A stretch of DNA of 28,355 bases from Chloroflexota bacterium (GTDB lineage Bacteria; Chloroflexota; Limnocylindria; Limnocylindrales; CSP1-4), in NCBI GenBank assembly GCA_043778745.1, contig JAYWFP010000120.1, positions 1 through 28,355 of the forward strand, written 5' to 3'. The notes beneath the pieces were generated by a model, which saw nothing but the letters and a program-made list of their open reading frames with translations, searched no databases and was not told where the DNA came from. Below are positions 11,767-14,884 of this stretch, in pieces (positions within the stretch are counted from its first letter, which is position 1; every line of letters starts with the position of its first letter). The translations under genes and the position numbers were made by a program.

Positions 11767-12585
11767 ATGGCCCCTGTACGCCAAGAACTTCAGCCCCTCG
11801 AGCCGCTCTTCCGCTGGCCTGGCGGCAAGCGGTGGCTCGTGCCCGAGCTCATGGGTCTTCTGCCAGATCCCATCGGCACGTACCACGAGCCGTTCTTTGG
11901 GGGCGGCGCACTCTTCTTTGCATTCAGACCCGCTTCGGCTGTCCTGTCAGATGCGAACTCCGAGTTGATGGATGCGTACTGCACGATTCGGGACGCATCC
12001 TCCGACGTTGAAGATCACCTTCGCTCGTATCCACGGGATCGTGATGGCTACTACAGGGTCCGTGGCTCACACCCGGCTACAGCGACCGAACGAGCCGCCC
12101 GGTTCGTGTATCTAACGACGATGGCCTTCAACGGCATATATCGAGTGAATAGGCAAGGAGAATTTAACGTGCCATACGGTGGTCGGATGTACCCGTCTCT
12201 CGGGACGGAAGGAGGACTCCGCCCGTACGCCGCCGCGCTTAAGGGAGCGGAGATCCGGGCTGCCGACTTCGAGGAGGCGCTCGAGGTCGCCGTGGGGGGG
12301 GACCTCGTCTATCTCGATCCGCCCTATACGGTGGCTCATGGCAACAACGGATTTCTTCGCTATAACGAGAGCATCTTCTCGTGGAAAGACCAACAGCGAC
12401 TTGCTGCGATCGCGGCAGAGCTCGACCATAAGGGTTGCCGGGTCATCGTTTCCAACGCGGCCCACAACTCCATTCGCGAACTCTACTCGGGTTTCCGGAC
12501 CATACCTGTCTCACGCCAATCGCGGATTGCCGCAGATCCAGCGCGCCGGCTCGTAACGCACGAACTCATCTTTACCAATGTTTGA
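11767..12585 (+). CDS. Dam/D12-class N6-adenine DNA methyltransferase
   Basis: FRWPGGK, YHEPFFGGGALFF (SAM binding), FNGIYRVN, VYLDPPY (catalytic). Start trimmed to ATG 11767. Confidence 0.92.
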   Translation: MAPVRQELQPLEPLFRWPGGKRWLVPELMGLLPDPIGTYHEPFFGGGALFFAFRPASAVLSDANSELMDAYCTIRDASSDVEDHLRSYPRDRDGYYRVRGSHPATATERAARFVYLTTMAFNGIYRVNRQGEFNVPYGGRMYPSLGTEGGLRPYAAALKGAEIRAADFEEALEVAVGGDLVYLDPPYTVAHGNNGFLRYNESIFSWKDQQRLAAIAAELDHKGCRVIVSNAAHNSIRELYSGFRTIPVSRQSRIAADPARRLVTHELIFTNV

Positions 12586-14884
12586 CCATCCTCATCTGGC
12601 GAACGTTCTCACCCGGGCAGAGTTGGGCGGGACCGCCCGACTGAAAGCAAGGACCTTTGACACGATCACGGTCAAGCCGTCGGACTTTCCCGAGCACGAA
12701 GCCAAAGGCTGGACCGTCGCGCGGAGAAACAAGCGAACGCTAGCGATCACGCGGGCCAAGACACACGACGCGTTGCTAGAGGACCGAGTGTGGTCTGTCC
12801 TTTGGAAGATGGAGTTTCCGTATTTGTCGGGCCCAGGGGGAGGCCTGGTCACAGTCAATCCGGGCGCGGATCGGAAGGTCACCACCCAAGTTGACGTCCT
12901 CGCGATCGACGAAGAGATGTCACTGGCAATTGAGTGCAAGTCTTCTGACAACCGGGCAAGGCGATCGGGCTTTCAAGAGGAGCTCGCGAAGCACAGCGCG
13001 GTGCGGGCGCCCCTGAATCAGGCGCTGAACCCACCGCGCGCTTCGACAGCAAAGCGATCGATCGTTTTGGTGATGTGGACGAGCAAGGCGATCCTCTCGA
13101 TGAATGATCGCGAGCGCGCCAAGCAACAGGGCGTCGTTTTGCTGGACGAACAGGATCTCGAGTACTTCGAGTCGCTCGTCTACCACCTTGGCCCCGCCGC
13201 GCGCTACCAATTCCTGTCCGAGCTCCTGCCTGGCAAGCCCATCCCGGGGCTCAAGATCACGGTGCCGGCGGTGCAAACAAAGATGGGTGGACACACCTGC
13301 TACACCTTTGCCGTGGCGCCCGAATACCTATTGAAGGTCGCCTACGTTGCGCGAAGAACCGGCCGGCGATCGGACGTCGGCACGTATCAGCGAATGCTCA
13401 CCCGTGCTCGTCTCAAGAAGATCGCTGTGTACATTGGCTCGGGCCCCGATGCGATGTTTCCAACGAACATCGTCATCAACCTGCAGCGTGGCAAGCGGCA
13501 GGACGTTCTCTTCTCGCGAGGTCATCAGGAAGCCGGATCGGATGCGGCCACATTCGGTTGGCTGACCATAACCCCGGCATATAAGTCGGCCTGGATCATT
13601 GATGGTCAGCATCGCTTATACGCCTATTCCTTTGCCGGCAAGGAGGCTGCGGCGAAGGGGCGACTTACGGTGCTGGCTTTCGTGGACTTGCCGGCGCGCA
13701 CTCAGCAGAAGCTGTTCGCGGAGATCAACCATGAACAGAAGAGCGTCAAGCAGAGCTTGATCCAGGAGCTCTACCCGGACCTGCACCGGGAAGCGGACGA
13801 TCCGCGAGAACGCATCAAGGCCGTAATCTCCACGGCCATCCAAATGCTAAGTGATGACGCCGACTCTCCTTTCTTCGATAGGGTCCAACTCTCGTCTGCT
13901 GAAAAGACCGATCTCCGGTGCATTTCCCTCACCAGTATCTTCACCACGCTTCAAAAGCCCGGCTTCTTCTGGTCCGAGATCAAGGGGAATCAGGTCTTCG
14001 GAGCCGGGCCGTTCTGGGATCTGACGGACGAACGCATGGTGAAGCGTTGCGTGACGCTCCTGAACTCCTGGTTCGGCAGGCTCCGTGACCGCGTTCCGGA
14101 ATGGTGGGACGCTGGGCAGGGCCCGGGCGGCGGTTTGGCGATGAACGACGGCGTCAGCATCGTGATCGATGTCCTTCGAAGCGTCATCGACCACCTCAGG
14201 GATCGACAAGTTCCGTTCCACAACTTATCGCTGCAGGAGAGCGTCGCAGTTACCGACATGTGGGCCCAGGCCTTGGCCGACTACTTCGGTGAGATGTCCG
14301 ATGAGGAGAGACGCGACTTTCGTGGGCTTCGAGGCAATCAGGGTCACGCAGCCGGAACGCGGCACGCTCAGGCCTATCTTCGGTCCCGATTCGCGGACTT
14401 CGATCCTGCCGGACTAACCGAGTTCCTCGAGCGGGAGCAGGCGCGCACCAATGACACGGCGATCTCCGTAATTAACGAAATGGAGCGTCAGATCTGTCGG
14501 ATCACCATCGCAGGCTTGAAAGCTAGATGGGGTGATGGCGACACCTGGTGGTATCAGGGCGTCCCGAAGGGTGTCCGAGCGGATGCGTCCAAGATTCAGA
14601 ACGACGACCAGAACAGTCGCGGCGCGCGAGAGAACTACCTGAACTTCATCCATTACCGATCCATTGTCGAGGACAATTGGGGACTCTTTGGGGATCTCCT
14701 GGCCCCTGGTAAACAGACGCAGAGCAAGTCCGTTCGCTCGGAGTGGATGGAGGAGGTCAACCGGATCCGACAGTTCACCGCACATGGGTCGAGCGGCACA
14801 TGGGTCTCATTCGAGGATTTGGACTTTCTAAAGGGCAAGCTCGAGTGGCTGAAAGTGGTTCCGACGCCGGACATCCCTGCTTGA
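12578..14884 (+). CDS. PD-(D/E)XK nuclease + DGQHR (DndB-like) + Swt1-like HEPN fusion
   Basis: LLEDRVW ... QVDVLAI ... IECKS (nuclease); FPTNIVIN, WIIDGQHRL, FAEINHEQ (DGQHR); C-terminal RQFTAH (RxxxxH). Start overlaps the methyltransferase end by 8 bp. Confidence 0.8.
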   Translation: MFDHPHLANVLTRAELGGTARLKARTFDTITVKPSDFPEHEAKGWTVARRNKRTLAITRAKTHDALLEDRVWSVLWKMEFPYLSGPGGGLVTVNPGADRKVTTQVDVLAIDEEMSLAIECKSSDNRARRSGFQEELAKHSAVRAPLNQALNPPRASTAKRSIVLVMWTSKAILSMNDRERAKQQGVVLLDEQDLEYFESLVYHLGPAARYQFLSELLPGKPIPGLKITVPAVQTKMGGHTCYTFAVAPEYLLKVAYVARRTGRRSDVGTYQRMLTRARLKKIAVYIGSGPDAMFPTNIVINLQRGKRQDVLFSRGHQEAGSDAATFGWLTITPAYKSAWIIDGQHRLYAYSFAGKEAAAKGRLTVLAFVDLPARTQQKLFAEINHEQKSVKQSLIQELYPDLHREADDPRERIKAVISTAIQMLSDDADSPFFDRVQLSSAEKTDLRCISLTSIFTTLQKPGFFWSEIKGNQVFGAGPFWDLTDERMVKRCVTLLNSWFGRLRDRVPEWWDAGQGPGGGLAMNDGVSIVIDVLRSVIDHLRDRQVPFHNLSLQESVAVTDMWAQALADYFGEMSDEERRDFRGLRGNQGHAAGTRHAQAYLRSRFADFDPAGLTEFLEREQARTNDTAISVINEMERQICRITIAGLKARWGDGDTWWYQGVPKGVRADASKIQNDDQNSRGARENYLNFIHYRSIVEDNWGLFGDLLAPGKQTQSKSVRSEWMEEVNRIRQFTAHGSSGTWVSFEDLDFLKGKLEWLKVVPTPDIPA

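Follow-up and report, generated by a model that had tools for sequence, protein, structure and literature searches.

Comparative genomics studies published in 2013 (including Anantharaman et al.) list fusions of ParB-fold domains to Swt1-type HEPN domains, fusions of ParB to PD-(D/E)xK nucleases, and operons that combine ParB, HEPN and a methylase (PMC3710099, PMC3632139), and propose that a HEPN domain fused or linked to a restriction-modification (R-M) system serves as a suicide backup and second defensive line (PMC3710099). The restriction effectors SspE, GmrSD and BrxU also fuse a DGQHR/ParB-fold NTPase to a nuclease, and they sense the modification state of DNA, with the corresponding modification module being encoded either next to them or in trans (PMC10853773, PMC12839542). 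PD-lambda-5, a validated and compact two-gene system that includes a methyltransferase, was read by its authors as 'RM+Abi', that is, R-M plus abortive infection (Vassallo et al., 2022, PMC9519451), and DndB is stated to combine ParB with a HEPN domain as well (Makarova et al.). Here we analyze a gene pair from a Chloroflexota bacterium of the order Limnocylindrales that is located in a 28,355-nucleotide stretch of DNA, henceforth the window (assembly GCA_043778745.1, contig JAYWFP010000120.1, positions 1 to 28,355). The pair consists of a Dam-class adenine methyltransferase gene (the methylase) that overlaps a gene coding for a 768-residue protein (the effector) with a predicted nuclease domain, a DGQHR domain and a HEPN domain. 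Our favored reading, which we consider fairly probable, is that the pair constitutes an unnamed two-gene R-M-like module with a possible RNase backup.

The ParB-HEPN proteins listed in 2013 resemble the pair in having a ParB/DGQHR domain fused to a Swt1-clade HEPN domain, in some cases also to a PD-(D/E)xK nuclease, and in their linkage to DNA methylases. They differ in that the listings report architectures only, with no name, two-gene unit, partner-swap analysis or experiment. One full-length relative of the effector, 33% identical, is located on the Novosphingobium aromaticivorans plasmid pNL1, and may correspond to the listed protein Saro_3948 (PMC3710099). The effectors SspE, GmrSD and BrxU are similar to the window effector in carrying a DGQHR/ParB-fold domain and a DNA nuclease in one polypeptide. 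However, those proteins combine DUF262 with a C-terminal DUF1524 HNH nuclease, whereas the window effector has a PF14072-type DGQHR domain, an N-terminal PD-(D/E)xK domain, an additional HEPN domain and a simple N6-methyladenine methylase as a partner. In addition, GmrSD-type enzymes attack modified DNA whereas the window effector is predicted to attack unmodified DNA. Membership of the effector in the GmrSD/SspE/BrxU group was rejected, as Pfam revealed no match to PF03235 (DUF262/GmrSD_N) or to any HNH family. The original prediction, made from the DNA sequence, had proposed the pair as a candidate new defence system whose architecture could not be matched to a named one. The absence of a name holds up, as no system model in PADLOC, Pfam or NCBIfam covers the methylase-effector pair, with PADLOC returning only a generic MTase_II model, sub-family-level DpdB/DndB matches and the candidate model PDC-M34B. 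The papers that we searched also contain no description or experimental study of a restriction endonuclease-DGQHR-HEPN protein paired with a methylase. The claim of novelty is narrowed by the ParB-HEPN fusions and the ParB, HEPN and methylase operons that were already listed in 2013.

The coordinates of both genes, their motifs and the surrounding features are given in Table 1. A DPPY-type methyltransferase gene that overlaps the effector gene by 8 bp is present as originally predicted, and this overlap is consistent with translational coupling. A Shine-Dalgarno-like GAGGGAG run lies 5' of the methylase ATG at 11767, and an in-frame GTG at 11680 constitutes an alternative start. The methylase is matched by PF02086 MethyltransfD12 in Pfam (E 2.9e-47), by TIGR00571 dam in NCBIfam (196.5 bits with a cut-off of 114.85) and by the generic PADLOC model MTase_II (E 9.4e-73). 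Its top solved relative is the GATC enzyme DpnM (2dpm, 152.9 bits) followed by E. coli Dam (84 bits), and because these are its closest solved relatives the methylation site is probably GATC or a related sequence. Residues K9, N120, L122, R124 and P134 of E. coli Dam, which would be its GATC contacts, correspond in the alignment to R, N, I, R and P of the window methylase and would thus be conservatively retained, which provides a lead only. The window contains 239 GATC sites, a ~2.7-fold excess over the ~89 that are expected from mononucleotide composition only, and the methylase-effector pair contains 37 versus ~11 expected. Thus, there is no GATC avoidance in the window.

We next considered the effector, for which an AlphaFold2 model was built on 32 relatives with a mean pLDDT (predicted local distance difference test) score of 85.4 and compared with known folds using Foldseek and a wide VIA-align search. 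The full-length model gave Foldseek matches only for the N-terminal nuclease, with the ParB and HEPN parts being detected by VIA-align, and a comparison of the effector family profile with chains in the PDB yielded nothing meaningful (best E 0.053, spurious). The N-terminal domain contains the motifs EDRVW (residues 68-72), QVDV (which includes D106) and IECKS (residues 118-122), and shows sub-threshold Pfam matches to Hjc (E 4e-4) and Card1_endonuc (E 0.01) with a signal that spans residues 89-194. Its fold matches are with AF1548 (Z 11.5), VC1899 (Z 10.9), the nuclease domains of Can2, Card1 and Cdn1 (Z 9-10.4) and NucS (Z 9.2), and Foldseek also recovered Cdn1 and VC1899 with E values of about 5e-4. 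No match to any restriction-enzyme family was observed for the effector in Pfam or NCBIfam. The central domain is more readily assigned by profiles, with residues 231-514 matching TIGR03187 DGQHR in NCBIfam (E 1.9e-39, 136.1 bits with a cut-off of 58.85), and the domain matching PF14072 DndB in Pfam (E 7.9e-16) and DpdB in PADLOC (E 4.1e-27), the latter, as for DndB, being a domain match at the level of a sub-family. Residues 231-405 also match ParB-type folds (PadC, Z 7.1; KorB, Z 6.8), and this domain is predicted to be an NTP-binding switch. A Pfam search of residues 400-620, which include a helical connector, gave no match.

The C-terminal region of the effector is a candidate HEPN domain in which residues 619-761 match the PADLOC candidate model PDC-M34B (E 2.7e-10). 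Fold matches for residues 612-768 include AbiF (Z 8.7), the C-terminal domain of yeast Swt1 (Z 6.8) and other HEPN proteins (Z 5.5-6.6), values that are middling for a helical domain and that agree with the Rx4H motif and with HEPN_Swt1 hits in homologues. The Pfam family HEPN_Swt1 does not match the C-terminus of the window effector, and in effector homologues it gives sub-threshold matches (E 0.0075-0.11, 13-17 bits versus a cut-off of 27.5). Genuine PDC-M34B proteins weakly match PD-T4-5, a relative of AbiF/D, and this places the C-terminal domain in the Abi2/Swt1 HEPN clade. Taken together, the three effector domains are supported by the structure model and its fold matches, and the sequence profiles agree with the nuclease, DGQHR and HEPN assignments that had been proposed from motifs.

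The central domain of the effector belongs to the same DGQHR subfamily as DndB and DpdB. DndB and DpdB are unlike the window effector in that they have no N-terminal nuclease and function in modification rather than restriction. The effector scored only 25.2 bits against the DndB equivalog TIGR03233 (cut-off 328), 82.1 bits against TIGR04172 (cut-off 450) and 89.9 bits against the DpdB equivalog NF041060 (cut-off 300). There are also no dnd or dpd genes near the pair in the window, where the neighbors code for the methylase, a trypsin-like protease, a uracil-DNA glycosylase, a phosphoribosyltransferase (PRTase) and DprA. Likewise, neither the window nor 80 related loci contain a TGT-like (DpdA) neighbor, with the recurrent neighbors being methylases or radical-SAM/GHKL proteins (SAM, S-adenosylmethionine). 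A DndB or DpdB role was therefore rejected because the scores are below the equivalog cut-offs and the partner genes are absent.

Type II R-M systems with a DpnM/Dam-class methylase, such as the GATC systems DpnII and MboI, likewise couple this methylase to a PD-(D/E)xK gene, but the nuclease partner in the window is three times larger, adds the NTP switch and HEPN domains and has no Pfam restriction-enzyme match. Among the hallmarks of a Type II R-M system, a methyltransferase with SAM and DPPY motifs and an adjacent endonuclease with an intact catalytic site were both found in silico, whereas the effector does not belong to a recognized restriction-enzyme family. The window methylase has a weak match to the PD-Lambda-5_B component (E 1.2e-8) and the effector has no match to PD-Lambda-5_A in PADLOC. 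Membership in PD-lambda-5 was ruled out on this basis, leaving this system as an analogue in logic only. Finally, PDC-M34B proteins belong to the same HEPN clade as the C-terminal 143 residues of the effector that match them, but are stand-alone proteins of ~200-270 residues. The effector has no match to PDC-M34A in PADLOC, a literature search for PDC-M34 returned no papers, and inspection of two genuine PDC-M34B loci revealed no recognizable component A, methylase or DGQHR neighbor. PDC-M34 membership was thus ruled out, with only component B being partially matched.

Conservation of the motifs was assessed with a set of 32 relatives that are 43-79% identical and with a set of 239 full-length relatives that includes distant cluster representatives. 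Invariant in the 32 relatives are E68, R70, W72, D106, E119-C-K121, D342-G-Q-H-R346, N728, R731 and H736. Among the 239 relatives, YQR (residues 270-272), F294, DGQHR, F380 and N384 are 100% conserved, the nuclease residues D106, E119 and K121 are retained in 97%, 92% and 84%, respectively, and the HEPN residues R731 and H736 are retained in 91% and 89%. The retention of the E..D..ExK, DGQHR and RxxxxH motifs, which the original prediction had noted in the single window protein, indicates that these motifs are not due to chance, and the complete invariance of the ParB-like core indicates that it is the indispensable part of the effector. Both nuclease signatures (D-ExK and R/H) are intact in 170 of the 239 relatives, and this pattern of residue retention indicates that purifying selection acts on both of them in most members. 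Both sites are missing in 5 relatives versus ~5.5 expected under independence (n = 239). Loss of one site is thus statistically independent of loss of the other, with no anti-correlation, and nothing here supports an 'either-or' use of the DNase and HEPN sites.

Linkage of the effector to DNA-modifying enzymes was assessed in the gene neighborhoods of 80 genome loci, and several of the loci without a Dam-like neighbor are cut by contig ends. A tblastn search with the window methylase found a Dam-like methylase directly beside the effector in 58 of these loci, and clustering of the neighbors yielded 56 full-length Dam-like open reading frames (ORFs), of which 49 lie upstream of the effector gene in the same orientation and are separated from it by a median of 10 nt. 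Where the Dam-like methylase is missing, another modification-type enzyme replaces it. Specifically, the partner is an MT-A70 methylase in three loci (L010, L030 and L042, E about 1e-30), a longer D12 methylase in two (L036 and L048), and in nine loci a protein of 390-545 residues with weak B12-type radical-SAM signatures that is followed by a GHKL ATPase in seven cases. The linkage of homologues to methyltransferases that the original prediction had put forward as a check was thus observed, with the radical-SAM loci as an addition to it. The partner type changes at least seven times on the effector tree, and the well-supported branches force at least three independent radical-SAM and two MT-A70 associations. 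As read from this tree, repeated partner change is the swappable-marker pattern of R-M systems. Pairwise distances of the methylase and effector are also correlated (Mantel r 0.525, with none of 2000 permutations as high), indicating that these two proteins co-diverge, to which host relatedness could contribute, and the patchy phyletic pattern argues for co-transfer of the methylase and effector as a unit.

In a deep clade of the effector family, a B12-type radical-SAM-like protein and a GHKL (HATPase_c_3) ATPase are found in place of the methylase (L093, as well as L069-L077, L007, L031 and L035). Locus L093 is from the N. aromaticivorans plasmid pNL1 (NC_009426.1, 118850-125348), where a short 335-residue DGQHR protein precedes the radical-SAM protein and the ATPase in an operon that is convergent with the gene for the large effector. 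This operon resembles a DpdB-like/radical-SAM/ATPase modification module that may make a novel DNA mark. A second, shorter DGQHR gene is also located near the large effector in L009 (8915-9844), L048 (10715-10936) and L045 (2023-2328).

When analyzing the distribution of the family, a word-indexed search recovered 619 full-length effector relatives, and an exhaustive search recovered 2190 proteins at E<=0.001 as well as 438 representatives of fifty-percent clusters at E<=1e-30, with nearly all of the latter being 750-790 residues in length. A relative is encoded in 411 of ~185,000 species genomes from Chloroflexota, Acidobacteriota, Bacteroidota, Bacillota, Pseudomonadota, Actinomycetota, Gemmatimonadota, Planctomycetota and others, together with one Thorarchaeota metagenome-assembled genome (MAG), and the effector tree is incongruent with taxonomy. 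Relatives are also present on five plasmids, four of which are conjugative. Near-identical effectors occur in a Dehalococcoidales MAG and the Thorarchaeota MAG (L031 and L035), as well as in a Pseudomonas MAG and a Flavihumibacter MAG (L033 and L039). Such copies across phyla and domains would reflect either very recent transfer or binning contamination. The genome that contains the window is itself a 1.9-Mb MAG that is 67% complete. A comparison with 200 other genomes of the order, 15 of them from the same genus, did not recover the effector, and this absence indicates, at the level of genome comparison, that the methylase-effector pair was acquired horizontally. The GC content of the pair is 0.595 as compared to 0.715 for the putative polB and 0.734 for cas1, in line with the earlier observation that the pair is more AT-rich than the casposon core. 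Finally, frameshifts, interruptions or truncations affect at least 6 of the 80 effector copies, and broken copies are common for toxic restriction genes.

In the reading that we favor, the Dam-class methyltransferase would mark resident DNA with N6-methyladenine and thereby protect it from the effector. The invariant DGQHR (ParB/Srx-fold) domain would function as an NTP-dependent switch that engages DNA, as in SspE, GmrSD and DpdB, and upon encountering DNA without the mark would permit cleavage by the N-terminal PD-(D/E)xK nuclease. The Swt1/AbiF-type HEPN domain would contribute an RNase output, either as an abortive-infection backup or as a toxic arm that kills cells which lose the cassette. 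Given its location within a Cas1/TIR/TSD element (Cas1 with terminal inverted repeats and a target-site duplication, see below), the pair probably contributes to host defence as well as to stabilization of the element. The original prediction had assigned the same sensor, restriction and suicide roles, and as far as computation goes this earlier reading is supported, with these three roles and an anti-phage effect being inferred. We advance only tentatively, as a possibility, the bolder view that one chain constitutes a complete 'RM plus Abi' effector in which the ParB-like switch reads modification, the PD-(D/E)xK domain restricts and the HEPN RNase causes suicide or dormancy. According to this view the self-marking enzyme would be exchangeable among two methylase folds and a B12-type radical-SAM enzyme, with the radical-SAM variant implying a new mark that is made by radical chemistry.

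Several observations weigh against the R-M-like reading. The main problem is that the chemistry of the partner varies, involving two methylase folds as well as a radical-SAM protein, so that it is difficult to see how one conserved effector reads different marks. The canonical DGQHR proteins DndB and DpdB also belong to modification and not restriction modules. The exact D-ExK triad is missing in ~18% of the relatives and the R/H pair in ~13%, some of which may be alignment error. A GATC specificity draws on relatives of only ~40% identity, and the activity assignments are predictions for every member of the family. There is also no effector relative in the phage collection that was searched. 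A homodimer prediction with two copies of residues 605-768 returned 'no answer' with a score of 0.00, which speaks neither for nor against this reading.

The location of the pair bears on the question of what it is for. Both genes are cargo of a casposon-like element that contains a Cas1 gene, terminal inverted repeats (TIRs) and a target-site duplication (TSD), as expected of a casposon. The imperfect TIRs are 32 nt long, start with GGGGTAGTAG and abut the direct repeat at both ends of the element. A 1008-residue ORF for a putative polymerase has no match in Pfam or NCBIfam, and PolB is therefore unconfirmed here. Bacterial family-3 casposons are known to carry methyltransferases and nucleases as cargo (PMC9939771), and for this reason a selfish addiction role is a serious and non-exclusive rival. 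According to this explanation, methylation would decay once the element is lost and the cell would be killed by the long-lived effector (post-segregational killing), thereby stabilizing the element with little or no anti-phage role. The presence of relatives on conjugative plasmids and the extensive horizontal transfer of the family across phyla point in the same direction, as does the GATC-rich composition of the window, since the element would depend on the methylase if GATC is the target. However, that excess is measured against mononucleotide composition only, and most relatives are chromosomal with no obvious element in the 6-kb flanks that were examined. Addiction and defence are also not mutually exclusive for R-M systems. 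We regard addiction as the chief role to be unlikely.

Somewhat less likely still is that the effector chiefly assists or regulates DNA modification by controlling or targeting the neighboring enzyme, with the nuclease-like domains being used for DNA access or regulation. Precedents are DndB, a regulator of phosphorothioation, and DpdB, which powers base insertion, and the only part of the effector that is 100% invariant is a DGQHR domain of the DndB/DpdB type. The short DGQHR protein that shares an operon with the radical-SAM protein and ATPase on pNL1 also indicates that DGQHR proteins do join modification modules. However, Dam-class methylases need no accessory ATPase, and the 84-97% conservation of the PD-(D/E)xK and Rx4H residues argues, as far as alignments go, for active nucleases. 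Broken effectors beside intact methylases are also a better fit to a toxic gene. Finally, an abortive-infection toxin-antitoxin-like pair, in which a phage-triggered HEPN RNase would be the real effector and the methylase would either neutralize it by contact or be an independent orphan, draws on the AbiD/F-Swt1 type of the HEPN domain and on the common use of HEPN toxins as Abi effectors (PMC3710099). We regard this explanation as quite improbable. Interchange of three unrelated partner folds fits a shared product (marked DNA) better than a shared protein-protein interface, and D106 and E119 are conserved at least as well as the HEPN dyad, with only K121 (84%) being lower.

Table 1. Features of the methylase-effector pair and of the casposon-like element that surrounds it (nucleotide positions in the window; residue numbers refer to the respective protein).
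Feature	Position (nt)	Strand	Residues	Remarks
Methylase ORF	11767-12585	+	272 from ATG	Dam/D12-class N6-adenine DNA methyltransferase
FFGGG SAM-binding motif (FxGxG)	11893-11907	+	43-47	Methylase sequence
DPPY catalytic motif	12316-12327	+	184-187	Methylase sequence
8-bp gene overlap, ATGTTTGA	12578-12585	+		Methylase stop and effector start, read from sequence
Effector ORF	12578-14884	+	768	Three predicted domains; intact, all conserved motifs present
Predicted PD-(D/E)xK nuclease domain	12578-13237	+	1-220	Fold matches, sub-threshold profiles, residue conservation
Nuclease residues	12779-12781; 12893-12895; 12932-12940	+	E68; D106; E119-C-K121	Conserved motif positions
DGQHR domain, ParB/Srx fold, DndB/DpdB-like	13256-14119	+	227-514	Profiles and fold matches
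YQR, FPT and DGQHR motifs of the DGQHR domain	13385-13393; 13457-13465; 13601-13615	+	DGQHR, 342-346	Invariant in relatives
Helical connector	14120-14410	+	515-611	Secondary structure of model; no family assignment
GGGLAMND motif in connector	14126-14149	+		Conservation in relatives
Predicted HEPN domain, Swt1/AbiD-F type	14411-14884	+	612-768	PADLOC profile, fold matches, Rx4H motif
HEPN residues	14759-14785	+	N728-x2-R731-x4-H736	Rx4H motif near effector C-terminus
Casposon-like element, ~17.6 kb	8546-26176			Cas1, TIRs and direct repeat; pair is cargo
Identical 15-bp direct repeat (TSD), cgtcaatcgcgggcc	8546-8560 and 26162-26176			Read from sequence
402-residue secreted-looking protein	within 8685-11234		402	Left-hand cargo; no family match
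Trypsin-like serine protease	10374-11234			PF00089 E 1.4e-29; left-hand cargo
Uracil-DNA glycosylase family protein	within 15312-17859	-		PF03167 E 2.8e-35; element cargo
HTH_17 excisionase-like protein	15907-16113	-		Element cargo
Weak ComF/PRTase-like protein	16184-16924	-		Element cargo
DprA/SLOG protein	16933-17859	-		PF02481 E 3.5e-63; element cargo
Putative polymerase	17899-20925	-	1008	No profile match
cas1	22971-24533			TIGR00287 E 1.7e-37, 129 bits, cut-off 71.7

Additional cargo of the element is located on both sides of the pair (Table 1). The DprA and PRTase pair of the element resembles known defence-associated pairs. The left-hand cargo (8561-11230) is also low in GC content, with a value of 0.611.

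Overall, we observe a bacterial casposon-like element that carries a candidate defence/addiction cassette as cargo. If the R-M-like reading is correct, then the family would be among the more widespread R-M-type modules that are still without a name or an experiment, and its effector would have an architecture unlike that of any characterized restriction enzyme. It would also mean that the DndB/DpdB-type ParB fold is usable as a restriction switch, and the pair would offer a direct test of the long-standing idea that R-M components fused to HEPN RNases thereby gain a further layer of defence. Finally, a radical-SAM protein has repeatedly taken the place of the methylase, which points to a possible new DNA modification.

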